Positions 48,369-63,978 of a DNA stretch of 64,000 bases are shown piece after piece. The stretch's first letter is position 1. Each line of letters starts with the position of its first letter. The notes below the pieces were generated by a model. The model did not search any database. It was not told the origin of the DNA and was given only the letters and a program-made list of their open reading frames with translations. Source of the stretch: Candidatus Omnitrophota bacterium (GTDB lineage Bacteria > Omnitrophota > Gorgyraeia > Zapsychrales > Fredricksoniimonadaceae); NCBI GenBank assembly GCA_030650275.1, contig JAUSEK010000015.1, positions 3,834 to 67,833 of the forward strand, read 5' to 3'. The position numbers were made by a program, and so were the translations under genes.

Positions 48369-48612
48369 GTTGATTCTGTCGTTTTGGCTCATTAGTTTTT
48401 GCTATTTTTTGGATAAAGGATTGTCAATAACTGAAGTATAACACATTATATATAAGCGGCAAATTTTTGCAAAATTTTTTACGCATTTATTTGCTTATAT
48501 TGCAATAGGTTACGTCTTTTCTCCAAAATTTTTTAAATATATTCCAAAACTTTGTTCTTATAAGTAATAAAAATATTAAGAAAGCGTTTTCTTTGTGAGC
48601 ACATGACTTACG

Positions 48613-48851: not shown

Positions 48852-49490
48852 ATGGAATTCAATGAGTTTCTCAAAAAATACCAAAACCTGCCGCTTTTAA
48901 ATACTGATCTCCTTTTGACCGGAGAAACGGATCCCCGCTTATTACGGGTCCAGCTGTCGCGTTGGGTCAAAGCAGGGCATCTCTTTCGATTGAAACGGGG
49001 AGTCTATGCTTTTGCGCCGCACTTTCAAAAAATTCTCCCTTCGCCCTATCTGATCGCTTCAGTCCTGACCCGGCCATCCTATGTGAGCCTGGAAAAAGCC
49101 CTAGAATTCCATGGGCTCATTCCGGAGGCGGTTTTTACGGTCACATGTGTGACCACCAAAAGGCCGGGCCGGTTTGAAACACCGCTGGGGAGGTTCAGCT
49201 ACAATCACGTCCGGCCGCAATTGTTCTGGGGGTATGCTTCAGTCCTGCTTGAGGACCAGTCCGGATCCATGGCCCATCCGGAAAAAGCGCTTCTGGACCT
49301 TATTTATTTAAAGGCGCCGCGACTGACCAAAAATTATCTGGAGGGGCTGCGGCTGCAAAATTTTGAAAAGATCAACGCCGGTAGGCTGCTGGAATACGGC
49401 CGCAGGTTCAAGAAACCGCGCATGCTTCACGCGGCCGGGATGATCATCGCATATATGAAAAAAACGGCATCCACGGAGAAAAAACTATGA
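48852..49490 (+). CDS. abiEi: AbiEi-family antitoxin/transcriptional regulator (type IV toxin-antitoxin), with an N-terminal AbiEi_4-type winged HTH.
   Basis: The 212-aa product MEFNEFLKKYQNLPLLNTDLLLTGETDPRLLRVQLSRWVKAGHLFRLKRGVYAF… matches the AbiEi N-terminal domain pattern. Its stop overlaps the next gene's start by 4 bp (ATGA at 49487-49490), as is usual for AbiE operons. Confidence 0.75.
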   Translation: MEFNEFLKKYQNLPLLNTDLLLTGETDPRLLRVQLSRWVKAGHLFRLKRGVYAFAPHFQKILPSPYLIASVLTRPSYVSLEKALEFHGLIPEAVFTVTCVTTKRPGRFETPLGRFSYNHVRPQLFWGYASVLLEDQSGSMAHPEKALLDLIYLKAPRLTKNYLEGLRLQNFEKINAGRLLEYGRRFKKPRMLHAAGMIIAYMKKTASTEKKL

Positions 49491-50290
49491 AAGACCATTG
49501 TCTGGAGCTCGCCCGGCAACAGTCCGGTCCTTCCGAAAAATATAATGTCCTGCGGGAATACACGCAGGCCTATGTTCTCAACATCATGCAGGAGGCGGGG
49601 GCGCTGCGGTCTTGCGTGTTCGTCGGCGGAACGGCACTGCGCTTTCTGTATGATCTTCCGCGCTTTTCAGAAGACCTGGACTTCTGTGCGGTCGGCCCAT
49701 ACGATCTTGTGTTCGCTGACCTCCTGGGCAAGATCAAACAGGAGCTGGTCCTGGCCGGCTATGAGGTCAGCGTCACCTACAGCGACGATAAAACCGTTCA
49801 TTCGGCGTTTATCAAATTTGAAGGGCTGTTGTTCGAGGCCGGGCTTTCACGCTTAAAGAGCGAAAAATTCTCCATCAAGATCGAGATCGATACCAGGCCG
49901 CCCGGCGGCGCGGTCGTTGTGACAAGGGTCATCAATAAATTCTTCCCCATGGCGTTTTTAACGTATGACCTGCCGTCGTTGTTCGCCGGAAAGATGCACG
50001 CCGTCCTGAGCCGCAAATACGTCAAAGGACGGGATTATTACGATATCGCGTGGTATCTGTCTAAGCGCAAAGACCTGCTACCCAATCTTGCCCTGCTTTC
50101 CGCCGCGCTGGAACAAACGGGCTGGAAAGGACCGGCCGTGACCGGGGAAAACTGGCGGTCCGTTCTTGCGGCGCGGGTTGAACAAACGGATTGGAAGATC
50201 GTGGACCAGGACGTCAACAATTTCCTCGAGCGGCCAGAAGACCTGAAGGTGTTGACGAAAGAGAATGTTCTTCGATTGCTCGCAGAATAG
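49487..50290 (+). CDS. abiEii: AbiEii/AbiGii-family nucleotidyltransferase toxin (DUF1814).
   Basis: The 267-aa product has the characteristic motif block …VFVGGTALRFLYDLPRFSEDLDFC… of AbiEii toxins. It is translationally coupled to the preceding antitoxin gene. Confidence 0.8.
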   Translation: MKDHCLELARQQSGPSEKYNVLREYTQAYVLNIMQEAGALRSCVFVGGTALRFLYDLPRFSEDLDFCAVGPYDLVFADLLGKIKQELVLAGYEVSVTYSDDKTVHSAFIKFEGLLFEAGLSRLKSEKFSIKIEIDTRPPGGAVVVTRVINKFFPMAFLTYDLPSLFAGKMHAVLSRKYVKGRDYYDIAWYLSKRKDLLPNLALLSAALEQTGWKGPAVTGENWRSVLAARVEQTDWKIVDQDVNNFLERPEDLKVLTKENVLRLLAE

Positions 50291-50307: not shown

Positions 50308-51228
50308 TTATTTCCCGGCGCCCAAGGCCTGCAGGGGGTTATTTTGGATGAAATCAAGGAAAATAGGGCCAGCCACTAAAATAGCCACCACCGGGAAGAT
50401 AAAGAACAGGAGGGGAATAAGCATTTTCAAAGGGGCTTTTAAGGCCACGGTCTCCCCGCGCCTGAAACGGGCCTCGCGCATATCTTCGGAAAGGATGTTG
50501 AGGGCCTCGCTCACCGAGGTCCCCATGCGGTCGGCCTGAATGAGGGTGCGGGAAAAGGTGGAGAGATCCGGCATCTCATATTTGCGGGCCATGTCGCGCA
50601 AGGCGTCGCGCCGCGGCTTGCCCACGTTGATCTCCTGCATCATGCTTTTCAATTCCTCAATGATCACCGAACCGTGGGACTTTTCCACCACGTATTTGAG
50701 CGCCATCATGAAATCCAGTCCCGCGTTGACGCAAAGCCCCAGCAAGTCCACCGTATCCGGCAATTCGCGCAAAATCGTGTCCCTGACTTTCTTGATGCGC
50801 GCCTTCAGCCACAACTCGGGAAGCATATATCCGGCCGCGATGCTCATCAGAACAGAAAACAGCAGGATCTCCTTGCCGACGTAGGACACGCTGGTCCACA
50901 AAAAAATGAGGACCAGGATCTCCTTGATCAAAAAGAATTCCTCGACGGAAATAGCGGTCCTGCTCATTCCTAAGTCCGTGGCCATGCGCCTGCCCAAAGG
51001 CAAAACAGCCAACGGCTTATTAAAAAAAGCCAATTTGCTGATCATGCTAAAAATGAGCTGCAGCGGCTTTTTTTTCTTCGGCTTGACCGTAACAGGCGGC
51101 TCCATGCCTTCAACGGTGAAACTGCCAACGGGGTTTAATTTCAATGTCGGGCGGCCCTTGACAGGCATCAAAGCCAGGGCCAGGGCAAAGACGGCAAAAA
51201 AGGCGAACATCAGTGACAAGACGAGCAT
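50308..51228 (-). CDS. tadC: Tad/Flp pilus assembly inner-membrane protein, TadC-like (T2SS F-domain family).
   Basis: The 306-aa product has an N-terminal TM helix, a cytoplasmic T2SSF-type domain (…ELPDTVDLLGLCVNAGLDFMMALKYV…) and C-terminal TM helices. Confidence 0.7.
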   Translation of the reverse strand: MLVLSLMFAFFAVFALALALMPVKGRPTLKLNPVGSFTVEGMEPPVTVKPKKKKPLQLIFSMISKLAFFNKPLAVLPLGRRMATDLGMSRTAISVEEFFLIKEILVLIFLWTSVSYVGKEILLFSVLMSIAAGYMLPELWLKARIKKVRDTILRELPDTVDLLGLCVNAGLDFMMALKYVVEKSHGSVIIEELKSMMQEINVGKPRRDALRDMARKYEMPDLSTFSRTLIQADRMGTSVSEALNILSEDMREARFRRGETVALKAPLKMLIPLLFFIFPVVAILVAGPIFLDFIQNNPLQALGAGK

Positions 51229-51331: not shown

Positions 51332-52186
51332 TTAAATGTCCTTGAACGTTGATATCTTCAAAATACTCAACGCCCCCACCACCCACAAAACCAGACAGAG
51401 GGCCACCAATTTCTGTCCGTCGGGGGTGTGGAGCATGGGGTCAAAAAATTTGGGATTGGTCGCCGAAACGCCGAAGACGAAAACCACCGGCAACCCGGTC
51501 ATGACCGCGGCCTGGATCTTGCCCTGCACGGTCAGGGTCTGGAGATTCTGCTCGATCTTCCTGCGTTCGCGTATGGTGGTGACGATGCGCGAAAAAATGA
51601 GCGGCAAATTTCCGCCGGTCTCGCGCGCTAATAAAATGGCGGTGATCATCTGCTGAAGGCCGGGGGAGGGCATGCGCTGGTAGAGCCGGTTGAGCGACTC
51701 GTCGAGCGCAACGCCCATTTTATTCTCGCCGAGCACGATGCCGAATTCCTGCCTGATGGGCTCCGGCATTTCCTCCGTGACCGCCTCAACCGCCTGGATC
51801 AAGCTCAAGCCCCCGCGAAAAGAACTGGACATGATCATCAGCGCGTCCATCAATTGATCGTTGAATTTCGCTTTGCGGTCCCTGATGATCTTCGCGACAT
51901 ACAGCCGCGGGATAATGGCCCCCAGCGCGATCCCGACAAAGATCCCGAATACCCGCGCGTCATGAAAAAAAACAAACCCCGCCAGACCAAGGGCGGCCGG
52001 CGCGATGATCTGCAGGCGGTAGGCCTTTTGAAAATCCCGGCCCTGCAAATGAACGTCAACCTTTAAAGCAAGGTCCTTGGCGTTCTTTTCATTCATTTCC
52101 CTGGTCTTGGCAATGACCACGGGAACAAGGGTATAAGACAGCACGCCGGCACAAATGAAAAACAAAAACAAGGTCATTTCAAACAT
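51332..52186 (-). CDS. tadB: Tad/Flp pilus assembly inner-membrane protein, TadB-like (T2SS F-domain family).
   Basis: The 284-aa product has an N-terminal TM helix, a T2SSF domain (…LIQAVEAVTEEMPEPIRQEFGIVLGENKMGVALDESLNRLYQRMPSPGLQQMI…) and C-terminal TM helices. Confidence 0.7.
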   Translation of the reverse strand: MFEMTLFLFFICAGVLSYTLVPVVIAKTREMNEKNAKDLALKVDVHLQGRDFQKAYRLQIIAPAALGLAGFVFFHDARVFGIFVGIALGAIIPRLYVAKIIRDRKAKFNDQLMDALMIMSSSFRGGLSLIQAVEAVTEEMPEPIRQEFGIVLGENKMGVALDESLNRLYQRMPSPGLQQMITAILLARETGGNLPLIFSRIVTTIRERRKIEQNLQTLTVQGKIQAAVMTGLPVVFVFGVSATNPKFFDPMLHTPDGQKLVALCLVLWVVGALSILKISTFKDI

Positions 52187-52215: not shown

Positions 52216-52569
52216 TCAGTAATACGGGTCGCTGTTGGGTTCGCGACAATTGCCGGAACATCCCTGGATAATGCCCGCTTCACACGCGGCAACATCAACA
52301 GCCGTGACGCAGGCGCGACGGCCGTTGTCGAAACAACGCTCATCATACCATGTCCTTGTGGCCGTATCGTGGGCGCACTCAACGGTGCGTTTGGGATCGT
52401 ATTGCCGGCCGAACGCAAAAGAATCGCCGGCGGTTTTCCATCGTCCGTAAAAGGCGCGCACAATAGGGCCTTTCATCCAAAACAGCGCCGCTAAAATGAT
52501 CGCGATCAAAAGCGCGTATTCAATGACGGCGCGACCGCGATTTCTAGCGACCCAGTGTGTTCTCATCAA
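52216..52569 (-). CDS. TadE-like pseudopilin with a class III (Tad-type) prepilin signal (…RGRAVIEYALLIAIILAALF…).
   Basis: 117 aa with an N-terminal G/xxxEY-type leader and a hydrophobic helix. Confidence 0.55.
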   Translation of the reverse strand: MMRTHWVARNRGRAVIEYALLIAIILAALFWMKGPIVRAFYGRWKTAGDSFAFGRQYDPKRTVECAHDTATRTWYDERCFDNGRRACVTAVDVAACEAGIIQGCSGNCREPNSDPYY

Positions 52570-55500
52570 AGGCTCCGGCAGGGCAGGGGACGAATTTGAC
52601 TTCCATGTGATTCGTCGACCGGTTGCCTGTATACACGGCGCATACCGTGGTCTTGGTCCCCTGGCTCAATAATGAATCCACCGTGGCCCAGCAACTCGCG
52701 GGGATCGTATTGAAGGGATCGCTGCCAACAGTATTGAGCATGAACGCCTGCCCGACCGATTGTTGGTCCGCCGCGGTCCCGCTGTTGATAACATAATTTC
52801 CCGCAATACCCAAACCCTGTCTCTGGCAGGCGGACAGCCCGGCGGCCGATCCCGGCACTGTGCCGGGTTTGCCAAAATGAAAATTCCACACCGGAACCGT
52901 ATTATTGAACGTCGTTGTCGCCGGGCGTTCTTCATCCCAGCGGGTGACGCGCGTCAGGACCCGGCCGTCGTAATCTTTTAACTCGGAGTGTTGTCTCGTC
53001 CACAAAAACCCGTCGGTGTCTACTTCAATATGCGGCAGATTGTCACGGTTGCCCGTGCCATACTCGCACATGCCCGCCACCGGGCATTTGCCAGGCCCCA
53101 TGCCTTCGGCCCGGACCATATGCCAATGCTGTGCCCTTGACGGATTTTTGGGATCAACGGGGCTTTGCCAGCCATACACAAGAAAATTAGGCATCTTGTC
53201 AAGATACAGCTGATAGTCCTGAAGGACAAGGAACAAAGACGGCACCGGCCGCTGGTCCGGATCGATCGTTCCGTCGGCAAGCATGGTCCCATACAGAAAA
53301 TTATCCAGCATCATCTTGCCGTGAGCGACCGTTCCCAGCGCCGCTTTGGTATTGCCCTTGATCGTTCTTAAATGTTCCTTCCTGGCCGTGAATTGCGCCG
53401 ACTGCGGCCCGGACAGATCATAGCTGTCATCCACCCATTTCTTATACAGCGATGGGGTCGCGCATGGGTCAAAGGCGGGCACGGGGCAATTTTGTGGCTG
53501 TTCAGGAGGAGCGGGTTCGCACACCAAAGACCGCGGCAATTCTTGGCAGACCGCCGGCAATGACGGGCACAGAACGCCCGACACGCTGCTTGCGCATGCC
53601 TGAAGATCGGCAAGACTATTCTGCTTGGCCGTTTCGCACGCAGAGATCTGTGCCTGGGTGCCGGTGCATATCTGGGCGGACACATCGGCAATTTGTTGTG
53701 CGATCCCGTTAAGTACCGCGGCCTTGGCGCTTGCGTCGCATGGATCAAACGAGGCGGCACAGCTGGGCGTCGCACAAGACAGGGCATCCAAAGCATCCTT
53801 GCATGTCTTGAAACGAACATCATTGGTTGAATTCCAGTCCAGGCATGCGATGACGCTGTTCAGCGATCCCCACGGGTTGCCTTTGAATTGGCCGGGGTTG
53901 GAATAGCAGCCGGGACAGGTGTCAAAGGTTTTGGTATAATCAATCTCATCGGGGGTCATTTGCGCATATTGAGGGTCGCTCTCACGCGGCATGCACCAGG
54001 CATTGAACTGCGGAAAAACATACGGTGTTATACCAAGGAACAGTCCCCTGTCGTGATAATCCTTCAAAAGATCATCCGTGGTCACGTCATCCTCGTCGCT
54101 GTTGAGCCAGGCCGTCAATGTCAGCCGCCAGGCCGTCAACCTGTTCTCAAATCGATACAAAACCCCGCCGCCCTCCTGGCAGATCAGGGCATTGCTGCCG
54201 TCGCATTCGGGGCCGATCCACACCGCGGCTTCCGGATACCATTCCTTCAAATTGGCCCTCAAAGTGTCATCATCCTGCGCTAAAAGCAGTTTGGCCCAGG
54301 CGTAGAACCCTTTCAGGGAATAAACGATGTCGTCCATCGGGTCTTCCGGCCAGTCCGCGGCTGTGGCCGGCGTGCACTTGGGGCAGGAAGTTCTGGTGCA
54401 GGCGTTTCTGGGACATTCATTATACGGCCATGTGGTGGAACAATACTGGTCTGCCCCTTCTCTCCACCAGAACCCGTTCGGGTCAAGACCGGGCTTATCC
54501 GCACAAAAGGGGGCCCGTGAGCAGAGCGGACTATCCGGGTTCACGCAATCTGGGTCATTTGGGTCCGGGCCCACCGCATGAAAAATTTGAGAGATCTTAA
54601 CCTTATCCGGCCTGCGATAGTCCCTGACACCGCCGGGGCCCGGGATCCTTAGGCCATCGCCGGTATTGCGCATGTCACCCATGTCCCAGAACAGGGAAAA
54701 TATGCCTTTGGCCTCAGCTTGGCGATCCTTGAACACTTTCTTTTCTACGTCAACCCCGAACGTGGCCAGAAAACTTGTGCCGCCGGAATATTTCGGATAG
54801 GTGGGGTCATAAATAAACGGAAAGGATGGGTCCGCTGCCGCGCATTGGGCCGGCACGGTAAGCAGACAACTGGCGGGCCGCAGGCGCTTGCCGTTGAAGG
54901 TCAGGGGCACACAGCACTTGTTGCAATGCGGATCACTGTTGGGCGTGCCATCCGGATTTTTCGGGCAGGCCTCTGTTATTTCTCCCAGCAAGGTGCCTAA
55001 CCCATCCAGGAAAACGGTAAGGTCCATGCCTGACATCGCTCTTTTAAGGGCTTTCAGGCGTTCGGTATAAAAAAATCCATACCGGCCGATCTTATCGTCG
55101 GAAGCGGGCCCGAATTTCCCGTTGGTATTGATGTCAAAATAATCAATGATCTTGCCCTGGTCCGAGACCAAACTTTGCGCGCCGGCGGACAAGCCCTGTT
55201 CCAAAAACCGGTCCTTGAGGGGCAATTTGGTATGCATTTGGTTGAAGGCCTTCACGGTCTTCACATCATTATAGACCGTGATCAGTGTGGCGGCCGCTCC
55301 CCCTATGGCTAAAGTGATCATGACGGCCGCAAGATGGGTGCCGGCCCCGGCTGTAAAATATATAATAAGGGCGGCGGCAATGAAGCTAAGAGCAACGACA
55401 ACCCAGCGCGCGAAACCGGACTTTTCAAAGCCCCCGCCCAGCGAGCTTTGGATCAGGGACTCGCCATAACTGGCAATGCCCGAAACAGTGTTGGCGGCCG

Positions 55501-55642
55501 CATTGGTGGCTGCCGTGGTCGTCATGTTCTTGATCTGCGACACGCGTCCCCAGTTGAGCGTGACGGCAAAAAAGATGAGCGCGATGGCGGCCAGTAAAAT
55601 AAGAACGAGGGCGGCTTGCCCTTTATAATTTTTCATAGTCAC
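52544..55642 (-). CDS. Large (about 1030 aa) Cys-rich TadE/TadG-like pilus-associated protein. The likely start is ATG at 55636 (MKNYKGQAALVLILLAAIALIFF…); the track start at 55642 is a GTG.
   Basis: The N-terminus has a Tad-type prepilin-like leader plus a hydrophobic helix. The remainder is an extracellular Cys/Pro/Asp/Trp-rich domain (…CNKCCVPLTF…, …CPRNACTRTSCPKCTP…). Confidence 0.6.
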   Translation of the reverse strand: MTMKNYKGQAALVLILLAAIALIFFAVTLNWGRVSQIKNMTTTAATNAAANTVSGIASYGESLIQSSLGGGFEKSGFARWVVVALSFIAAALIIYFTAGAGTHLAAVMITLAIGGAAATLITVYNDVKTVKAFNQMHTKLPLKDRFLEQGLSAGAQSLVSDQGKIIDYFDINTNGKFGPASDDKIGRYGFFYTERLKALKRAMSGMDLTVFLDGLGTLLGEITEACPKNPDGTPNSDPHCNKCCVPLTFNGKRLRPASCLLTVPAQCAAADPSFPFIYDPTYPKYSGGTSFLATFGVDVEKKVFKDRQAEAKGIFSLFWDMGDMRNTGDGLRIPGPGGVRDYRRPDKVKISQIFHAVGPDPNDPDCVNPDSPLCSRAPFCADKPGLDPNGFWWREGADQYCSTTWPYNECPRNACTRTSCPKCTPATAADWPEDPMDDIVYSLKGFYAWAKLLLAQDDDTLRANLKEWYPEAAVWIGPECDGSNALICQEGGGVLYRFENRLTAWRLTLTAWLNSDEDDVTTDDLLKDYHDRGLFLGITPYVFPQFNAWCMPRESDPQYAQMTPDEIDYTKTFDTCPGCYSNPGQFKGNPWGSLNSVIACLDWNSTNDVRFKTCKDALDALSCATPSCAASFDPCDASAKAAVLNGIAQQIADVSAQICTGTQAQISACETAKQNSLADLQACASSVSGVLCPSLPAVCQELPRSLVCEPAPPEQPQNCPVPAFDPCATPSLYKKWVDDSYDLSGPQSAQFTARKEHLRTIKGNTKAALGTVAHGKMMLDNFLYGTMLADGTIDPDQRPVPSLFLVLQDYQLYLDKMPNFLVYGWQSPVDPKNPSRAQHWHMVRAEGMGPGKCPVAGMCEYGTGNRDNLPHIEVDTDGFLWTRQHSELKDYDGRVLTRVTRWDEERPATTTFNNTVPVWNFHFGKPGTVPGSAAGLSACQRQGLGIAGNYVINSGTAADQQSVGQAFMLNTVGSDPFNTIPASCWATVDSLLSQGTKTTVCAVYTGNRSTNHMEVKFVPCPAGAFDENTLGR

Positions 55643-55890
55643 TGCCCCAGATCCACCCCGGGAGAAGCGTTGATCCTCGAGGGGTGATAAGCGTTCGATT
55701 GCAACCGTTCCAGGTTCCCCGTGGTGATCGCTGTGTTAAAAGAAGCATCGTATGCGTACTGACGCTTGGCCACGTCCATACCGACCCAGCGGAACACCTG
55801 GACCATGCCGTAAAGCAAAAACATGGCCGCGATCATGGCGAACACGAATTCAATAGTAGACTGCCCGTTGAATTTCCTCCCCCTTGTCAT
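55639..55890 (-). CDS. TadE-like pseudopilin, 83 aa if started at ATG 55890 (MTRGRKFNGQSTIEFVFAMIAAMFLLYG…). The longer track ORF to 56040 overlaps the upstream gene.
   Basis: It carries the GQSTIEF class III signal. It has ATGA-type overlaps with both neighbours at 55887-55890 and 55639-55642. Confidence 0.55.
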   Translation of the reverse strand: MTRGRKFNGQSTIEFVFAMIAAMFLLYGMVQVFRWVGMDVAKRQYAYDASFNTAITTGNLERLQSNAYHPSRINASPGVDLGQ

Positions 55891-57344
55891 GGCGCTCCCC
55901 CCAAACGCAATTGCCCCGACGCGTCCGTTTTCCAAAAATGCCCCTGCTGGTCCAGCATCCGCGAACGCACGTACAAAATCTTGCTGGCGCTGTCGAAACA
56001 GGTCCTGGCGATATTGTTGACGGAAAAACAGCCACCGCACACCTCGACAGCGGGCACTTCACTGGGCACGCCGATACCCCCACACATGCGCCCCGTGTCA
56101 TTGGACAATTGTATTTTCCGCTCGACTAAGTCCACCTGGTCCTTGCGGTTGACCGAGCGGATGAATTTTCCATCGAGATCATACGCCTTGCCCTGATTTA
56201 TCAAAAGATGATTGCCTTTGGCTGAACCAAAAGCCGGCTTGGTATAGATCGCCATATCATTCAAAAGCCCTACTTTGCCGACAGCGGCATCCGGACTGGT
56301 CATATCAAGGTCGCCTTCCTGGGAATCGAACACCACGGCCCCGGTGGCAATGCCATCGTCGTTATAATCCACCTGATAGATCGTTTCCTCCTGGCCGTCT
56401 CCGTCCACGTCAAAGGAAGGGTAGGAGCCATGGTCGGCATCAATGTGCAAGGGCTTACCGTCATCCTCATTATCGTCCATGGCCTGCACACCCCTCCACT
56501 GCCAGGTCATGTTCGCGTACAAAGACGAGGGGGGATCATTGGAAAGGTTGTCATCATGGTTGAGGTCAAAGCGTTCCGGCCCTGTCAAAAGCCCCGGACA
56601 CTGGCCGGAGGAAACACAAAACCTTTTTTCCAGGGCCTCCTGCCTGATCTCATCGCTGGCATCCTCACTGATCTCATTGCCGTCCTCCATGTTGACGACG
56701 GTTTGATAAAAGATCGGGCATCCGCGGCCACTTTTGCATGAAGAATCCCAACCGCCGCGCTGCGGCGGATCATGGACGATCGGCACAGGAGGGGCCGGGC
56801 CCTCGCAACCAGGGTCCTCCTCCGGACAGGAAAAGGAAACAGGGGCCACATAGGTTGTGGTCTCAACAAGTCCAGCTTTCGCGGAATGCACCGGACCGCC
56901 GCTGGAGCCCAAAAATCTTTTATACACAAGCCGCGCCATCGAGAAGGTGAAATGTTTACCGTTGATGAACATGTCCATAACGGGGACATGTCTGGGGTCC
57001 TGCAATTCCGACATGTCCATCGGATACATGAGCAGGTTGGTCATGCTGCCCGATCCCTGGGCCGTGAACGGCGCGCGCTCGGTGGATCCGTATTTGCCGA
57101 AATCCGGGCTCAACCGGTCTTCCAGATAAAGCATGGAAGGGCTGATGCGGCTGGTGTCGCCGGGAGTGCTTTTGGAGGACTGCACAAGGGCGTTGCGCAT
57201 GGCCTTTAAGGAGGCGTCCTGGCCCTGGCCCGAAGAAACCGCGGAACGGATGATGGCGCCCAGCACAAAAATGATGATGGCGCCGAAGATCGCCAGTTCT
57301 ATGACGGCCTGCCCTGAGCAATGTCGAAGGGCCTGTCCTTTCAA
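55887..57344 (-). CDS. 485-aa TadE-domain protein (TTG start; leader MKGQALRHCSGQAVIELAIFGAIIIFVLG) with a large Asp/Gly-rich C-terminal domain. Probably a minor pilin, adhesin or tip component.
   Basis: The N-terminus has the class III signal peptide motif GQAVIEL plus a TM helix. The C-terminal part is acidic, with DxDxDG-like stretches (…FDVDGDGQEETIYQVDYNDDGIATG…). Confidence 0.55.
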   Translation of the reverse strand: MKGQALRHCSGQAVIELAIFGAIIIFVLGAIIRSAVSSGQGQDASLKAMRNALVQSSKSTPGDTSRISPSMLYLEDRLSPDFGKYGSTERAPFTAQGSGSMTNLLMYPMDMSELQDPRHVPVMDMFINGKHFTFSMARLVYKRFLGSSGGPVHSAKAGLVETTTYVAPVSFSCPEEDPGCEGPAPPVPIVHDPPQRGGWDSSCKSGRGCPIFYQTVVNMEDGNEISEDASDEIRQEALEKRFCVSSGQCPGLLTGPERFDLNHDDNLSNDPPSSLYANMTWQWRGVQAMDDNEDDGKPLHIDADHGSYPSFDVDGDGQEETIYQVDYNDDGIATGAVVFDSQEGDLDMTSPDAAVGKVGLLNDMAIYTKPAFGSAKGNHLLINQGKAYDLDGKFIRSVNRKDQVDLVERKIQLSNDTGRMCGGIGVPSEVPAVEVCGGCFSVNNIARTCFDSASKILYVRSRMLDQQGHFWKTDASGQLRLGGAP

Positions 57345-57673
57345 AATGCACCGTCCTGACCGACTTGCATGTAACTGTTACGTTGTTCCGACGAGCGAGT
57401 GTTATCATTACGAAAGGTGGTATTGCTCAACGTCGTGATCGTTGTGTCGGATTCGGTGGCGGCTGTATATTGGGTGGTGGAATTGGTCTGCTGGGGATCA
57501 TACTGGTCGGCAAAATCGTCAACGGCGCTCTTCCATCTGCCTTGCATGCCGCGCTTGACATAACTGCTCATGCTCAAAAAGACCGCGATGATGATAATGG
57601 TCAGGACCGTGAACTCAAGTATGCTTTGCGCCCGGTGATCTCTGCGATGTCTTTGAAAATATTTGAACACCAT
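57341..57673 (-). CDS. TadE-like pseudopilin (…RAQSILEFTVLTIIIIAVFL…).
   Basis: 110 aa with a class III signal motif. It is stop-start coupled to the downstream gene. Confidence 0.5.
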   Translation of the reverse strand: MVFKYFQRHRRDHRAQSILEFTVLTIIIIAVFLSMSSYVKRGMQGRWKSAVDDFADQYDPQQTNSTTQYTAATESDTTITTLSNTTFRNDNTRSSEQRNSYMQVGQDGAF

Positions 57674-57711
57674 GCTTTCTCCGACTGTACGGGCGACCCG
57701 GCGGGTCGCCC

Positions 57712-58122
57712 CTACTGGTTCAATTTCCCGAGATTCGTCTGCGAATCGGACGTCGTATTCGTGGTCTCATTCACGGTAATATCGGCAACGCCGCCCCAGC
57801 CGGGCGTTACAACATTTTTGCTGACATGGCCCGTGACCTGTGTATTTGCCCCCACCAGATATCCCCCGGTCGCGCCCGGGTCATCGGCGTCCAGGAAATC
57901 CTGGTCGGCATTCTGTTGAGCGCCGATCTGGTCGGAGGTCACCTTCACCAAACTCTGCACGCCCCGCTTGAACAAAGGCCCCATATAAAAAAGCGCGACC
58001 GTGATGATCCCGATCAGAACAATATACTCAACGACGGTCTGGCCTTTATTTCCCATACCGGTCCCCGGCCGCGGCCCCGGGCGGAAGTTGTTCGCTATTG
58101 CTGGTCGTTTCAATGGTTTCAT
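57712..58122 (-). CDS. TadE-like pseudopilin. The probable start is ATG 58056 (MGNKGQTVVEYIVLIGIITVALF…).
   Basis: It has the GQTVVEY class III signal. The track ORF extends further 5' to 58122. Confidence 0.5.
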   Translation of the reverse strand: MKPLKRPAIANNFRPGPRPGTGMGNKGQTVVEYIVLIGIITVALFYMGPLFKRGVQSLVKVTSDQIGAQQNADQDFLDADDPGATGGYLVGANTQVTGHVSKNVVTPGWGGVADITVNETTNTTSDSQTNLGKLNQ

Positions 58123-58453
58123 TGGTTATTTTGCGAAATTGCCTGTCCGCGCCGCCGGCCAAGCCGGTCCTGACATCGCTGTTACGGCTGGTCCGGGAAT
58201 CGACTTTGCCGTAATACGGTTCATACTCGCGGGGAATGCCGCTTCCGCTGATCCCGGCCGCGGCCCTGCAATCAGGGCCGCATTCATTGGCGGCAACGTT
58301 GACCATATAATCTCTGCTGTCTTTGATCTTGGCCTGAATGGAGCGCTGGATATAGACCGTCATGGCCACGGCCGTGGCAACGACTAAAAAAAACGTCACC
58401 ACGTATTCGGGAAGGGAACTCTGGCCATTTTGGCCGTTTATGCCGCGCGCCAT
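58046..58453 (-). CDS. TadE-like pseudopilin (…GQSSLPEYVVTFFLVVATAVAMTV…).
   Basis: 135 aa with a class III signal-like N-terminus. Confidence 0.45.
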   Translation of the reverse strand: MARGINGQNGQSSLPEYVVTFFLVVATAVAMTVYIQRSIQAKIKDSRDYMVNVAANECGPDCRAAAGISGSGIPREYEPYYGKVDSRTSRNSDVRTGLAGGADRQFRKITNETIETTSNSEQLPPGAAAGDRYGK

Positions 58454-58466
58454 GAAGTTCTCCCAG

Positions 58467-58655
58467 CTATTGAGGGTTGGTCGCCCTCATCAGACGGTTG
58501 GCCATGTCCTCCATGCCATCGGTGGTTTTATTGATGGTATCGGAAAGTTTGTTCCGAAACGCCCCGCCGGGCCCGGTGAACAGGATGATCACCGCGATCA
58601 CCGCGGTGACCAACAAAATATACTCCACCGTGCTCTGGCCTTTTGTCTTCATCAT
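58467..58655 (-). CDS. flp: Flp-family type IVb pilin (MMKTKGQSTVEYILLVTAVIAVIILF…), 62 aa.
   Basis: A short product with the Flp motif G/QSTVEY and a hydrophobic helix. A GGGAG Shine-Dalgarno lies 8 nt upstream. Confidence 0.7.
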   Translation of the reverse strand: MMKTKGQSTVEYILLVTAVIAVIILFTGPGGAFRNKLSDTINKTTDGMEDMANRLMRATNPQ

Positions 58656-58702
58656 ACGCGCTCCCTACGATTTAGAAACCACTAAGGGACCCCCACCGGG
58701 GG

Positions 58703-59035
58703 TCATCTGCCCATATATTCCTGCTCGGTGTTGACGATCACCGATCTTTCCGACGTATTGGTGGTTTCGGGACCGATCAATCCGGTCGCGGAAACGCCCT
58801 GTCCGTCCACACCGAACGTCTCACGGCTCGTGCTGGACGTGTTGGTGGTCTTGATGACGTTGGTATTGCCCACCGAATACTGGTCGCCGATATCGTCGGC
58901 AGCGCTCTTTAAACGGCCCTGCACGCCGCGCTTGATGTAAAACTGGATGGACAACAGCGCGCCGATGATGATGACGGTCAGCACCGCGTATTCAAGGGTG
59001 CTTTGCCCTCTTTTTTGGCTAAAATAAGTCAACAT
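58703..59035 (-). CDS. TadE-like pseudopilin (…KRGQSTLEYAVLTVIIIGALL…).
   Basis: 110 aa with a class III signal motif. Confidence 0.5.
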   Translation of the reverse strand: MLTYFSQKRGQSTLEYAVLTVIIIGALLSIQFYIKRGVQGRLKSAADDIGDQYSVGNTNVIKTTNTSSTSRETFGVDGQGVSATGLIGPETTNTSERSVIVNTEQEYMGR

Positions 59036-59065
59036 AGAACATCCTCCTTAAGATACGATTTTATT

Positions 59066-59452
59066 TTAGTCGCCGCCGCCTGTCCCGTCGGTGCTGTACG
59101 TTGACTGCTGGGTACCGGTCCTGCTGCGGTTGGTCGTTGAGTCCGCGGCGACCAGACCCACGCCCTGACGCTTGTTCTCTTGGGCGTTACGGGTGCTGGT
59201 ATAATCGCTTTCCAGGTAATACGGTTCATACTGCGTTTGGTTGCCGATGGCGTTGGTCTGGCTGGCCAGATACTGGCTGGCATCGTGCATCCTTGCCTGC
59301 AAAGAACGCTGGGCATAGGTCTGCATCGCGATGACGCCCGCGACGACCAGGGCGATCAACAGCGCGTATTCCGCGGTGTTCTGCCCCGAGCGAAGTCGAG
59401 GGGTTTGTCCTCTGGTATTTTTAAATAAATTTCTAAACATATGTTCCTCCAT
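59066..59452 (-). CDS. TadE-like pseudopilin (…RSGQNTAEYALLIALVVAGVIAM…). An alternative start is ATG 59440.
   Basis: 128 aa with a class III signal motif. Confidence 0.5.
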   Translation of the reverse strand: MEEHMFRNLFKNTRGQTPRLRSGQNTAEYALLIALVVAGVIAMQTYAQRSLQARMHDASQYLASQTNAIGNQTQYEPYYLESDYTSTRNAQENKRQGVGLVAADSTTNRSRTGTQQSTYSTDGTGGGD

Positions 59453-59469
59453 TTATGGATGTTGTTTCT

Positions 59470-59724
59470 TTAAAATCCGGCCGTCGGGTCCACCGTGACG
59501 CCCGGCGCGGGAGTTACTCCGTTAGCGGTTGCCCCCTGGCTGTTCACCAAACGGTTGCTTATGCTCCCGATGCTGTCGGCGGTTGAGTTAAGGGTATTGC
59601 CCAAACGGCCCGTCAGTGCCGAATTCGGGCCGGTGGTAAAAAAGATCATCGCGCCGATGACCGCGGTCGCAAGCAAGATATACTCCACCGTGCTCTGACC
59701 TTTTGTCTTCATTTTCCTGAACAT
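59470..59724 (-). CDS. flp: Flp-family pilin (MFRKMKTKGQSTVEYILLATAVIGAMIFF…), 84 aa.
   Basis: It has the Flp motif and a perfect AGGAGG 7 nt upstream of the ATG at 59724. Its 5' end is near-identical to the flp gene at 58467-58655. Confidence 0.7.
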   Translation of the reverse strand: MFRKMKTKGQSTVEYILLATAVIGAMIFFTTGPNSALTGRLGNTLNSTADSIGSISNRLVNSQGATANGVTPAPGVTVDPTAGF

Positions 59725-59757
59725 ATAAATGCCTCCTGATGTATTTAAGATGCTTTG

Positions 59758-60015
59758 TTATTCGTTGGCGATCTCCTGCGTCACCGCCTTCTGGGTGGCC
59801 TGCACGGAACGGAACACGTAGGTGCTCATGGCCGCCATAGCAGCGGACACCAAGGCCACGACGATCGCGTATTCGATGAGATTTTGTCCTTTGATGTTCC
59901 TAAGGATCATCGCGGCTGCTCCTACATGAAAGATAAAGGAAGTATGCCATATAAAATAAGGGATGTCAACCCTTCGACCTAAAAATTCGCGTTGTTTTCC
60001 GACGCTATCTGACAC
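59758..60015 (-). CDS. flp: Flp-family pilin. The likely start is ATG 59910 (MILRNIKGQNLIEYAIVVALVSAAMAAM…).
   Basis: It has the GQNLIEY class III signal. The track ORF extends to 60015 and overlaps the upstream gene. Confidence 0.55.
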   Translation of the reverse strand: MSDSVGKQREFLGRRVDIPYFIWHTSFIFHVGAAAMILRNIKGQNLIEYAIVVALVSAAMAAMSTYVFRSVQATQKAVTQEIANE

Positions 60016-61295
60016 AGGACCCGGCGCCCGTTCTCATCGCGGATATTCAGGGCATTGACATTATCCGCGGCCTGCCGCAGAAAAGCAATGTGCGCATAAG
60101 AGGCAGGGGCCAGAAGGGTTATGTGTCTGCCCTGCTCAATAACCCCTTTAAGGGCCAAAACCGACTCAAAGGCATCCTGCCCAAAATCGGACGGGAAAAA
60201 GGCGCGCGCACGGGCTTGAAGCCGGGCCAAAACCCATGCCGGCTGGTCCGCAATATCCCCCCGCAAACTATCCGCCAGGGGGGACATGTTGATTTGAACC
60301 GGAGGATGGCGGTCTTTGAAGATACGCGCAATTTCATCATTTGATATATGTGGGCTAAAATTTGATAAAACTGACATATTCTTATCATATCCATCCATTT
60401 CTAGCCTTATATATCGTAATTTATGGTTATTCTGCTCCACTTCTAGATTTCTTGGCATTCCAAGAATGACATTCTTTTTTTGACGGGGGGAACAGGAAAA
60501 TTGAGCCAGGACAATTCCTCCTGCGCCCAACAAGGATGCCCGTGTCATGCCTTTACCAGCCACGCCCTCACAGGCCTGAAAAAAACTAAGGATCAAGGCG
60601 TCCGTAGCATTCTCCCCCAAGGAGCGTATGCATAAAGGATTGATATTATTAAGGATACAATCTGCGGTGTCCTGGATACAGCGCTCAATGCCTGCGGGAA
60701 AAATAGCCCTGCTAGGACCAAGGGCCTGAAAACGGCTGTCCATCTCAACACAAGAACCGTCTTCCAGATCGATCTTTAAACGTTCAACCACGGTGGATAT
60801 ATACTCCCATTCTTCTCGTAAGTTATTCAGATTTAATGACTTAATGTCTTCCAGTTTCTTGATCCCCCATACAGGACGGGGGAAAATATCCCAAAAAGTG
60901 GCTTTAATGAAAATCTCGCCCATGCGTTCCTGGACTTCGCCCCTGACCAACGGGCTGGGGGCTTGTTCCACAACACGCGGGGCCTGCTCTATGAGTTTTG
61001 GGGCAGGCGGTGGGGGTTGGAAGATCACGCCAGGCACGACATTGGCGAACAATTGCTGTTTCTTCTCCGGGGGGATCTGGAATTTGATCTTGGGTTTTCG
61101 GCCGCGAGGGATGACCACGCCATGTTCTTTTAAGACATCATGGACCGATGACTTAGAAACGACCTTTTGATGCCGTTCATGGACCAAGCCGGCGATCTCC
61201 CGGCAGGACAGACGGGGAGTTTCCTGTTTGCGTTCAATAATAAAGGAAACAACGTCTTCGGTGAGTTTATAAACAACGCCCATAGAAACCCCCAA
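59979..61295 (-). CDS. HTH-domain protein of unknown function. The N-terminal roughly 60 aa form a helix-turn-helix (…LSCREIAGLVHERHQKVVSKSSVHDVLKEHG…). The track start is TTG at 61295; ATG at 61283 is more likely.
   Basis: 438 aa with an N-terminal HTH. A 19-bp perfect palindrome sits immediately upstream (61297-61315). Confidence 0.45.
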   Translation of the reverse strand: MGVSMGVVYKLTEDVVSFIIERKQETPRLSCREIAGLVHERHQKVVSKSSVHDVLKEHGVVIPRGRKPKIKFQIPPEKKQQLFANVVPGVIFQPPPPAPKLIEQAPRVVEQAPSPLVRGEVQERMGEIFIKATFWDIFPRPVWGIKKLEDIKSLNLNNLREEWEYISTVVERLKIDLEDGSCVEMDSRFQALGPSRAIFPAGIERCIQDTADCILNNINPLCIRSLGENATDALILSFFQACEGVAGKGMTRASLLGAGGIVLAQFSCSPRQKKNVILGMPRNLEVEQNNHKLRYIRLEMDGYDKNMSVLSNFSPHISNDEIARIFKDRHPPVQINMSPLADSLRGDIADQPAWVLARLQARARAFFPSDFGQDAFESVLALKGVIEQGRHITLLAPASYAHIAFLRQAADNVNALNIRDENGRRVLCQIASENNANF

Positions 61296-61483: not shown

Positions 61484-61825
61484 TCAACCGATTTGAATAT
61501 TATCGCCCATGTGTGTTTGGGAGGCGGCAATGGTGCCGGCAGAGGTCTCAATGGCGCTGTGGGCTTGCAGGAAGAATGGAGAAAATTGAAAAGGCCGGAT
61601 GTCGGGGCACAGGCCCACCGCCGTGTTCGCGCGGTCAATAAAAATGACGTCCAGCGGGAATTTCATGAACAGCATGTGGATGCTGCGGCAGGGGGTGATG
61701 ACCAGCGCTTCGCCGGAATTGAGCGCCCCGCGGCCCAGCAGTCCGGTCATGCGTTTGAGGGGAGTTTTCGCCAGCGAACCGGTCTCGGCGATCAGCGTGC
61801 CGCGGGTCAAATTACGGATGGTCAT
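61484..61825 (-). CDS. DUF192 (COG1430) family protein.
   Basis: The 113-aa product has the pattern …GLLGRGALNSGEALVITPCRSIHMLFMKFPLDVIFIDRANTAV…, which matches the DUF192 signature. It has an ATGA overlap with the upstream ATPase gene. Confidence 0.45.
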   Translation of the reverse strand: MTIRNLTRGTLIAETGSLAKTPLKRMTGLLGRGALNSGEALVITPCRSIHMLFMKFPLDVIFIDRANTAVGLCPDIRPFQFSPFFLQAHSAIETSAGTIAASQTHMGDNIQIG

Positions 61826-63978
61826 ACGTTAAAGACGGCCTTGGACAGCGGAATGCCTCTGGTCTGGAAGTCCTCGAAACATTTGGGCACAAAGCCGGTG
61901 GCGCTGTATTCGCCCAGCACCACGCCGTCGGCATTGATGCCTTTTTGTTTAAAAATGAATACGTCCTTGAGCTCCGGAAGGCCCTCGACTATTTTTCCGG
62001 TCAGCTCGGAGATCGCCGTGATCTTGCGCGACCCGTCGGAAAAACGGGAAATTTGGATAATGATGTTGATGGCGGAGGCCGCCATTTCATAAATGGCGCG
62101 GATGGGCAGTTCAATGCCGGAAAGAAGCACCATGGAGCTCATGCGCGAGAGCACATCGCGCGGGGAATTGGCGTGCAGGGTCGTCAAAGACCCGTCGTGG
62201 CCGGTGTTCATGGCCTGGAGCATGTCCAGGACTTCCGGGCCGCGGCATTCGCCGATGATGATGCGGTCGGGCCGCATGCGCAAGGTGTTGATGAACAGGT
62301 CCCGGATGGTCACGCGTCCGCGGCCTTCAATGTTGGGCGGCTTGGACTCCAGGCGCGCCCAATGACTTTTCACCAAACGCAGTTCCGCCGCGTCTTCAAT
62401 GGTGATGATGCGCTCATTGTCCGGAATGAATTGCGAAACGATATTGAGCAGTGTTGTCTTGCCCGCGCCGGTGCCGCCGGAAACGATCACGTTCTTGCGG
62501 CCGATGACGCAGGCGTTCAGAAAATCCACCATGGGCTGGGACAGGGAATGGAATTTATTTAAAAGGTCGTCAACGGTGTAGCGCTCCTGGGCAAACTTGC
62601 GGATGGTGATCATGGGCCCGCCCAGCGACAGCGGGGGGATGATGGCGTTGATGCGCGAGCCGTCGGGCAATCGGGCGTCCACCATCGGGGCGCTCTCGTC
62701 CACGCGCCGGCCCAGGGGAGCGATGATGCGGTCAATGGTGGCGCGCACCTGGTCGTTGGAAATGAAGCGCTTGTTGGTCAAAATGATCTTGCCGCGTTTC
62801 TCGACGAAGATCTCATCCTTGTTGTTGACCATGATGTCGTTGATCTCCGGGTCGGCCAGAAAATCCTCCAGCGGCCCCAGGCCGAGGGCTTCATTGACGA
62901 TCTCACGCACCAAACGCGAGCGCTCCTCATGCGAAGCGATGAAAGCGCCGGCGGCCTCGGCCAGCAATTCGGAAACGATCTTGGCCGCGGCCTTGCGGAT
63001 ATTGGCGGCCTGTGCCGGGTCGGAAAGCGCCTCGGGCGAGATCTTCTGCACGTTCATGCGCTCAACCAGACGCTGATGGATGGCTTTTTTAAGTTTGATG
63101 ACCTCGTCCTCTTCCTGCCTATAGATCGTGACGGGCGATGAGGATCCGGGGGCAATGCCGAATTTTTCCCAGAACTCATTGCCCTTCTGGGCCTGCGTGT
63201 CCGCCGCGCGCACCTTGATGACGTCCGAGGCCTGCACATACATGTCTTCAACTTCGAGTTTGCCGGCAATCTCAAAAAATGACTCGGACACGCGGGCTTT
63301 GGGGCTGTCCATGACGCAGGGGACCCCGCGGTTGAGCGCCAGGCCGACGGTCTTCCCGTCGGAGGGAACGAGGGCGAAAATGTCGCAGGCCAGCGCCGAC
63401 TTGACCTCCTGCCAGGCCACCCCGCCGCGGCTTTCAGCGCGGTTGAGAATGAGTTTGACCATCTTTAAAGGATAGTGCAGGCTCTGAAGGATGTCGAGCG
63501 TCGCCTTGACCTGATAAACAGCCAAAATGTCCGGCGTCGCGACGAGAAGAATTAAATTGGAAGAATCCAGAACGCTGATGAGCATTTCGCTGAAGGCGCT
63601 GCCGGCATCCACGACAATGTAATCATAGATCAACGCCGCCTTCTTTAAAAAAGGACGGATATTGTCGGCCGTGATGTGTCCGGTCTGGCGGATATGCGTG
63701 ACGCCGGGCAGGAACTCCAGGCCGCTGGCATGGCGCAGGACATAACCGCGGATGATGTCGGGTTTCTCGTCCTTTTCAACGGCCGCCAGAAGATCAACGA
63801 GGGATTGCGTGGGGACAAGATTGAGCATGCGGGCCATGTCCTGACCGGCCTGCACGTCCAGGTCCACGATCAGGGTTTTCTTGGCCTTAAGGGCCAGGGC
63901 GGTCGCGATGTTGACGCCGACAAAGGTCTTGCCGACGCCGCCTTTATTGCTGAAAACCGTTATGACTCTGCAGGACAT
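61822..63978 (-). CDS. tadZA: Fusion of a TadZ/CpaE-like ParA/MinD-type ATPase domain (N-terminal) and a TadA/CpaF secretion ATPase (C-terminal).
   Basis: A deviant Walker A motif ([13 protein letters not shown]) lies at residues 8-20. CpaF-type Walker A ([16 protein letters not shown]) and the helical/His-box region (…[32 protein letters not shown]…) are in the C-terminal half. An in-frame stop upstream at 63988-63990 fixes the ATG at 63978 as the first start. Confidence 0.8.

Follow-up and report, generated by a model that had tools for sequence, protein, structure and literature searches.

The stretch of DNA analysed here, hereafter the window, comprises 64,000 nucleotides of contig JAUSEK010000015.1 (positions 3,834 to 67,833 of the forward strand) of a Candidatus Omnitrophota bacterium, and close to its end it carries a gene in which a TadZ-type ParA domain and a TadA/CpaF motor ATPase form one polypeptide (61822-63978 of the window, minus strand). 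We conclude, with a probability of about 0.82, that this gene encodes TadZA, the motor of a Tad (Flp) type IVb pilus bearing the ParA-type half of TadZ/CpaE at its N-terminus. A fusion of this kind has already been named and studied: it is the 'atypical TadZA fusion ATPase' of tad locus 1 of B. bacteriovorus HD100, which had been predicted earlier (Tesseur, Denise, Santin & Laloux, 8 July 2026, bioRxiv 10.64898/2026.07.08.737194). The Omnitrophota gene is a further example of it and no new kind of system.

The tadZA gene and its two ATPase domains

The gene is a single open reading frame (ORF) of 718 codons, with its ATG at 63978, its stop codon at 61822-61824 and no internal stops; the plus strand across the same interval has many. 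An earlier note on this DNA, which gave no strand for the gene, had proposed that one polypeptide joins a TadZ/CpaE-like ParA ATPase to TadA/CpaF, and both the uninterrupted minus-strand frame and the Pfam domains found in it bear this out. The domain annotation suggested there returned AAA_31, ParA and CbiA over residues 4-184 (E 1.6e-14 to 2.5e-13, above the cut-offs) and T2SSE over residues 365-642 (E 8.6e-59), and the three motifs that had been quoted, i.e., the P-loop KGGVGKT in the N-terminal domain and GGTGAGKTT plus a third one in the CpaF domain, are all present. The NCBIfam models gave a TadA-type match at residues 326-657 and MinD-like matches at residues 4-250, every one of them below its curated cut-off.

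Three parts can be distinguished in the protein, all encoded on the minus strand. The TadZ-type domain, with a ParA/MinD fold, takes up residues 1-250 (63229-63978) and was delimited with Pfam, with the structure 3ea0 and with matches to stand-alone TadZ proteins. It is followed by an inter-domain linker of residues 251-290 (63109-63228), which is predicted to be flexible and which varies in length and sequence save for one motif. The TadA/CpaF part, residues 291-718 (61825-63108), consists of an N-terminal helical region, an N-terminal domain and a C-terminal ATPase domain, as delimited with CpaF 9e24, T2SSE and Foldseek. Alignments of 14 and of 61 homologues indicated strong constraint on both halves.

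The C-terminal part is a CpaF/TadA motor

The CpaF part aligned to the C. crescentus CpaF structure 9e24 with 378.9 bits (E 2.8e-112; chain residues 64-482 of 501). The solved CpaF structures 9e24, 8rkd and 8rjf were all matched, and the identity to C. crescentus CpaF was ~45%. Other solved secretion ATPases gave at most 123 bits, these being archaeal GspE (123), FlaI (121) and VirB11 (110). In agreement, when the AlphaFold2 model was submitted to Foldseek, ranks 1 to 4 were all CpaF, with 8rjf and 9e24 at E about 1e-38.

All four catalytic boxes are intact in the C-terminal 430 amino acids, and the invariance of their residues was scored over 32 divergent homologues, distant fusions included. 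The motor Walker A, GGTGAGKTT (residues 501-509; 62452-62478), has G501, G502, G506, K507, T508 and T509 invariant; in the Asp box (residues 522-533; 62380-62415) this holds for E528, A531, E532 and L533, in the Walker B region (residues 567-580; 62239-62280) for R567-R572, G576, E577 and R579, and in the His box (residues 591-604; 62167-62208) for N591, G593, H594, G596, S597, T600, H602 and N604. No curated NCBIfam model reached its cut-off with this part; the conjugal-transfer-associated TadA model TIGR03819 scored 314 bits against a cut-off of 373. On these alignments and fold matches, we assign residues ~291-718 unambiguously to the TadA/CpaF motor.

The N-terminal domain is the ParA half of TadZ

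For comparison with separate proteins, GTDB was scanned at one genome per species and the resulting 80 loci were subjected to an ORF check. In 53 of them two adjacent genes matched the two halves (split loci), 13 had a single fused ORF, and 14 had the CpaF half only. In the 53 split loci, all from other phyla, tadA is directly preceded by a stand-alone TadZ-like ORF; the N-terminal domain of the window protein matched all 53 of these (36-162 bits), always in the C-terminal half of the stand-alone protein. Those proteins are typically 364-450 amino acids long, with the Walker A at about residues 104-187, and their layout is a receiver-like domain of about 130-180 residues followed by the ParA domain. 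The N-terminal atypical receiver (REC-like) domain of TadZ is absent from TadZA, whose ParA core begins at residue 4. A separate tadZ was found neither in the window operon nor in the Omnitrophota relatives with intact upstream DNA. Because all 53 TadZ proteins are matched, far above MinD, and because the domain is located in the tadZ slot, we assign it to the ParA half of TadZ/CpaE and not to a full TadZ. The earlier proposal of a TadZ fused to CpaF thus stands for the ParA half, and has to be given up for the receiver-like domain.

The best solved relative of the N-terminal domain was 3ea0, 'ParA family ATPase from Chlorobium tepidum' (67.7 bits), whose Walker A reads KGGDGGS, and the same structure was the first ParA-type Foldseek match of the AlphaFold2 model (TM-score 0.78). 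From this motif, 3ea0 is a putative TadZ homologue; the E. rectale TadZ structure is PDB 3FKQ.

The nucleotide-binding motifs of this domain are well preserved in 61 Omnitrophota homologues of 66-92% identity. In the deviant Walker A, NKGGVGKT (residues 11-18; 63925-63948), with the signature lysines Lys12 and Lys17, residues N11, K12, G13, G14, V15 and G16 are invariant and K17 is conserved in at least 90% of the sequences. KGGVGKT (residues 12-18) conforms to the Walker A-like pattern K/RGGxGx[ST] of TadZ/CpaE. Invariant too are D39 of VDLDV (residues 38-42; 63853-63867) and D124 of the ParA-type Walker B, VVDAG (residues 122-126; 63601-63615). We take VDLDV to hold the aspartates that ParA and MinD proteins have in switch I / Walker A'.

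These data bear on the possibility that the TadZ domain serves passively, as a scaffold or adaptor without an ATP cycle of its own, or that it is removed after translation, the fusion just ensuring co-expression. Many distant fused homologues do have a degenerate Walker A (KGGVGAS, KSGSGTT, REGMGQS, TQPQLGVT), which means that some members of the family, at least, can do without catalysis, and the linker, being predicted as disordered, could be a protease site. However, the Omnitrophota clade keeps the canonical motif, and the conservation of the Walker A (including K17), D39 and D124 in its 61 sequences indicates that nucleotide binding by the TadZ domain is under selection. Moreover, a full-length TadZA-msfGFP product was detected in Bdellovibrio (bioRxiv 10.64898/2026.07.08.737194). 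We consider a passive or removed TadZ domain unlikely.

It is very improbable that the N-terminal domain is instead a generic MinD/ParA ATPase captured by chance, neither derived from TadZ nor functionally equivalent to it. This explanation draws on the curated NCBIfam models, among which the best ParA-type matches were the MinD models TIGR01969 (81.8 bits) and TIGR01968 (77.4 bits), and the sole curated TadZ-type profile compared, that of the actinobacterial Ssd/CpaE homologue, gave just 33.9 bits (cut-off 154). It also fits the Walker A, which is a canonical KGGVGKT and not the Lys-less form common in TadZ, and the label 'septum site-determining protein MinD' that JGI attaches to several homologues. 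However, both MinD models remained far under their cut-offs (201.75 and 212.9 bits, respectively), and stand-alone TadZ proteins encoded upstream of tadA gave up to 162 bits, as compared with at most 57 for solved MinD chains. KGGVGKT/S is also found in many stand-alone TadZ of the 53 split loci. In addition, the domain is encoded where tadZ would be, past the secretin gene and ahead of tadA, and the Pfam annotation of the locus, in the window and in its relatives, contained no minC or minE.

The fusion is kept in frame across Omnitrophota

A search of 5.8 billion proteins for the same fusion in related genomes, as had been suggested, returned >115 clusters of collinear, full-length Omnitrophota homologues (714-727 amino acids, 66-99% identity, 99-100% coverage) from independent NCBI, JGI, ENA and Logan assemblies, and all of them carry both Pfam domain sets with the frame kept across the junction. 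One NCBI protein on a 175-kb contig is 100% identical and is annotated as 'MAG: ATPase, T2SS/T4P/T4SS family [Candidatus Omnitrophota bacterium]'. The earlier note had named an in-frame stop or a frameshift between the domains as what would speak against the fusion. Most other phyla encode the halves by two neighbouring genes just 3-60 bases apart, which one sequencing or assembly error could merge, but we give next to no credence to such an artefact here, because the junction (residues 251-290) is in the same frame in these >115 independent homologues, the linker holds an invariant motif, and the fused N-terminal domain begins at residue 4, without the 130-180-residue N-terminal domain of stand-alone TadZ, so that mere read-through from an ordinary tadZ does not account for it. 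Across these assemblies, we regard the single-ORF fusion as real and a missed stop or frameshift as excluded.

The linker and its FWEKFGI motif

The AlphaFold2 model gave a predicted local distance difference test (pLDDT) value <50 for residues 251-268 and 270-290 of the linker. The conserved motif lies at residues 269-275 (63154-63174), with the consensus FWEKFGI: among the 61 Omnitrophota sequences, F269, W270 and K272 are invariant, and F273 and G274 are conserved in at least 90%. A short helix was modelled at residues 267-271, within this region. The motif has the highest hydrophobic moment of the linker; a MinD control scored lower, and the test was not discriminating. It is located ~28 residues past the ParA core, where many stand-alone TadZ proteins end with basic or hydrophobic tails (RFSLFG, GLFGRK, FFARFRR). 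On this account, FWEKFGI is a candidate relic of the C-terminal amphipathic membrane-binding helix of TadZ, and it is the weakest step of the mechanism proposed below.

Distribution and origin of the fusion

The 53 split loci come from, among others, Actinomycetota, Acidobacteriota, Chloroflexota, Planctomycetota, Bacillota, Nitrospirales, Rugamonas, Terriglobus albidus and Oscillochloris. A naive reading of tblastn coverage had hinted at fusions in many phyla, and this was rejected when the ORF check resolved the 53 loci into two adjacent genes each. In named genomes, single-ORF fusions were found in Omnitrophota, Bdellovibrionota (Bdellovibrio sp. HCB288, Pseudobdellovibrionaceae, Oligoflexia and Bdellovibrionales), Elusimicrobiales (Elusimicrobiota), a WOR-3 metagenome-assembled genome (MAG) and several unclassified MAGs. 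One of the 13 fused loci, from Eremiobacterota (L037), is doubtful, being a 1260-codon stop-free stretch in DNA rich in guanine and cytosine, and it was left out of the tree described below. The fused ATPase encoded on another contig, CAYZPQ010000129.1 (L005), shares 75% identity with the window protein, which suggests that this contig, labelled 'uncultured Planctomycetales', was mis-binned and probably belongs to Omnitrophota.

When 1.84 billion cluster representatives (50% identity) were searched exhaustively with HMMER, 6,406 matched at E <1e-30. Among the best 150 of these, ~70 have ParA followed by CpaF in one polypeptide of 640-790 amino acids, at 34-56% identity, a proportion that is not a frequency, as ranking by full-length score favours fusions. 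The fusion had been called uncommon; that holds insofar as separate genes are the majority in the GTDB sample (53 split against 13 fused), and does not hold for Omnitrophota, where the fusion is phylum-wide, nor for the 150 top-ranking clusters, ~70 of which carry it. Several matches of the same search (P0096, P0121, P0123-P0125, P0128, P0136, P0145 and P0167) represent a motor fusion of another type, with two to four tandem CpaF-type ATPase modules in polypeptides of 820-1605 amino acids.

In a neighbour-joining tree of the CpaF domains, which is rough, has no support values and suffers from biased sampling, the fused proteins fell into two or more clans. Of the 37 members of the clan around Omnitrophota and Elusimicrobiales, to which the window protein belongs, 32 are fused, and of the 29 members of the clan around Bdellovibrio, 25.

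Comparison with known TadZA, Tad and MinD systems

In B. bacteriovorus, CRISPR interference with tadZA-tadB blocks prey invasion, TadZA-msfGFP shuttles between the poles with a bias to the invasive pole, and the TadZ plus linker region is necessary and sufficient for binding the polarity hub RomR, as determined by experiments in B. bacteriovorus and E. coli (bioRxiv 10.64898/2026.07.08.737194). The window protein is collinear with the fused ATPase of Bdellovibrio sp. HCB288 (38% identity, E 5e-169), whose locus has the order Flp - RcpC - secretin - ATPase - TadB - RHS, and this matches bd0113-bd0109 (PMC5430801, PMC3818213). Both systems share the order RcpC - secretin - fused ATPase, the absence of a separate tadZ and canonical Walker A motifs (KGGVGKT/S). 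They differ in that Bdellovibrio belongs to another phylum, the N-terminal domains are just ~30% identical, and the two proteins are in different clans of the rough CpaF tree. Moreover, tadB directly follows the ATPase gene in Bdellovibrio, whereas in Omnitrophota a DUF192 gene, a gene for a 438-residue protein and about ten pilin genes lie in between, and the RomR interaction is established for Bdellovibrio only.

The separate TadZ/CpaE and TadA/CpaF proteins of A. actinomycetemcomitans and C. crescentus comprise the same two modules in the same order, but as two polypeptides and with the atypical receiver domain in TadZ. The N-terminus of C. crescentus CpaF is disordered (about 63 residues were unmatched), whereas TadZA has the TadZ domain and the linker in that place. 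In Caulobacter, six CpaE dimers were fitted by subtomogram averaging as a ring around the CpaF hexamer, and CpaE is predicted to bind the inner membrane via a C-terminal amphipathic helix (PMC13170226). MinD and FlhG-type ATPases resemble the N-terminal domain in fold, in having a signature lysine in a deviant Walker A, and in a short motif, hydrophobic or amphipathic, that follows the ATPase core; in contrast to them, TadZA stays under the family cut-offs, has no Min or flagellar partners nearby, and has the motif internally and not at the C-terminus.

Tad complexes of Omnitrophota have been described as a marker of predation or parasitism, with TadB and TadC grouping with those of Bdellovibrionales (Seymour et al. 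2023, PMC10066038). The TadZA fusion is mentioned neither in that work nor in a 2026 preprint on complete Omnitrophota genomes.

Proposed mechanism and its meaning

We propose that the CpaF part would form the usual hexamer under the TadB/TadC platform and drive both polymerisation and depolymerisation of pilin. The six tethered TadZ domains would dimerise around ATP, as other ParA/MinD proteins do, and would build a membrane-proximal ring or collar such as surrounds CpaF in Caulobacter, where it consists of separate CpaE dimers, with FWEKFGI as a putative retained membrane-binding helix. The fusion would set a 1:1 stoichiometry and tie the site at which the machine is assembled to the motor. 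Judging from B. bacteriovorus TadZA, the TadZ domain plus linker is a probable docking site for a landmark protein of the cell pole or of a contact site, and the pilus probably serves for attachment to host or prey cells.

Several observations weigh against the TadZA reading or parts of it. For the Omnitrophota protein, ATP hydrolysis by the two halves, dimer formation, binding to the membrane and localisation are all inferred. The AlphaFold2 model, which was made for the monomer only, is mediocre (mean pLDDT 69.7; predicted template modelling score 0.46) and has no usable inter-domain geometry. FWEKFGI is short and flanked by acidic residues, making a membrane helix a weak reading, and it is restricted to the Omnitrophota clade and absent from more distant fusions, including that of Bdellovibrio. 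A TadZA hexamer would have six TadZ domains, as opposed to the twelve CpaE per CpaF hexamer modelled in Caulobacter (PMC13170226), and the analogy with the ring may fail. The Omnitrophota and Bdellovibrio fusions, which are in different clans of the rough tree, may be independent in origin, and a RomR-type function may not transfer. Lastly, the upstream context of the gene was taken from relatives (96% and 76% identity), as the RcpC and secretin genes are past the window edge.

A broader and, in our estimate, doubtful possibility is that the TadZA fusion is a hallmark of Tad machines specialised in attack on, or docking to, other cells, be it in Omnitrophota, Bdellovibrionota, Elusimicrobiota or uncultured lineages related to them, with a membrane-binding, ATP-switching TadZ on each motor subunit, and that the Omnitrophota machine works with the giant surface protein encoded nearby. 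If this were true, a tethered TadZ would give direct control of when and where a single bidirectional motor engages the platform. The positioning of Tad pili and the use of one motor for extension and retraction are active questions, the CpaF cryo-electron microscopy, the in situ tomography and the TadZA study all dating from 2024-2026. As for TadZA itself, an entire candidate phylum, whose members are ultra-small and probably depend on hosts, keeps the fusion, as do dozens of further sequence clusters, and this conservation indicates that the contact between TadZ and TadA is direct and physiologically important. The homologues also offer structural biology a large number of natural 1:1 constructs with which to study the TadZ-TadA interface. 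Finally, the fusion refines how the Tad system, taken as a marker of predatory or parasitic life in Omnitrophota, is annotated there: with its TadZ part concealed in the ATPase gene, TadZ may escape searches for it as a separate protein (KEGG K02282).

The Tad operon and its neighbourhood

The operon genes described here are all on the minus strand within the 64-kb window. Next to tadZA, and with its start overlapping the tadZA stop by 4 bases, is a DUF192 gene (61484-61825; Pfam E 9.2e-16), which is at the same position in the relatives L001-L003. Homologues of DUF192 were also observed within 3 kb downstream of tadA in 23 of the 80 GTDB loci, from many phyla (L004, L028, L053 and L056, among others) and irrespective of whether tadZ is fused, and the family may be a recurrent Tad accessory gene. 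The 438-residue protein (59979-61295) has a faint N-terminal helix-turn-helix match (HTH_32 / IS481-like, sub-threshold). Counterparts of 434-493 amino acids lie between DUF192 and the pilin genes in all the Omnitrophota loci compared, with the helix-turn-helix as the sole match.

The pilin set that follows (52216-60015) is unusually large. It includes eight small ORFs of 62-136 amino acids (57341-60015), seven of which have the Flp-type prepilin motif GQxxxEY, the eighth (57341-57673) reading AQSILEF in its place; the ORF at 57712-58122 gave a weak Pfam match to the Class III signal peptide. There are also four larger pilin-like proteins with Flp-like N-termini (52216-57344), of 485, 133, 1032 and 117 amino acids, with N-terminal motifs such as GQAVIEL and GQSTIEF. 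Altogether, the window has at least ten ORFs with an Flp motif. The 133-residue one is TadE-like (Pfam E 1.7e-4, just under the cut-off), and the 485- and 1032-residue proteins matched no Pfam family. Two TadB/TadC-type platform genes are located at 51332-52186 and 50308-51228 (T2SSF, E 2.1e-17 and 2.6e-17, respectively). Neither the window nor the loci of its relatives showed a prepilin peptidase (TadV), as has likewise been reported for Bdellovibrio.

In the Omnitrophota relatives, the gene order is SurA-like - RcpC/CpaB - secretin - TadZA - DUF192 - ... - Flp pilins - pseudopilins - TadB - TadC, and in L002 and L003 RcpC and the secretin are encoded directly upstream of tadZA. Judging from these relatives, the corresponding genes must lie just past the end of the window, and we read the locus as that of a complete Tad/Flp machine. 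The secretin upstream of tadZA (L002, 8236-9987; L003, 6590-8341) matched TonB_C / TonB_2 beside Secretin and T2SS-T3SS_pil_N, which suggests that the Omnitrophota Tad secretin is a secretin-TonB-like fusion.

The Tad operon is separated from a giant gene only by an AbiEi/AbiEii pair (48852-50290, plus strand), on the strand opposite to both, with an AbiEi-like antitoxin (212 amino acids, weak match) and an AbiEii nucleotidyltransferase toxin (267 amino acids, E 6.8e-27). Reassignment of stop codons or pseudogenes had been considered for the first 48 kb, which are poor in ORFs, and both were rejected, as the region is one giant minus-strand ORF. This ORF (1-48392) has its ATG at 48392 and is open to the first base of the window, giving at least 16,130 codons. 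Plus-strand ORFs lying over it had no Pfam matches and look like shadows. The giant protein has a transmembrane-like segment near its N-terminus and a Peptidase_C39 match at residues 207-284 (E 5.8e-7), with no further Pfam domain in the first 10,000 residues. In published work, giant genes of Omnitrophota have genes for pili or secretion on their flanks (2026 preprint on complete Omnitrophota genomes), and the giant ORF of the window fits this description.

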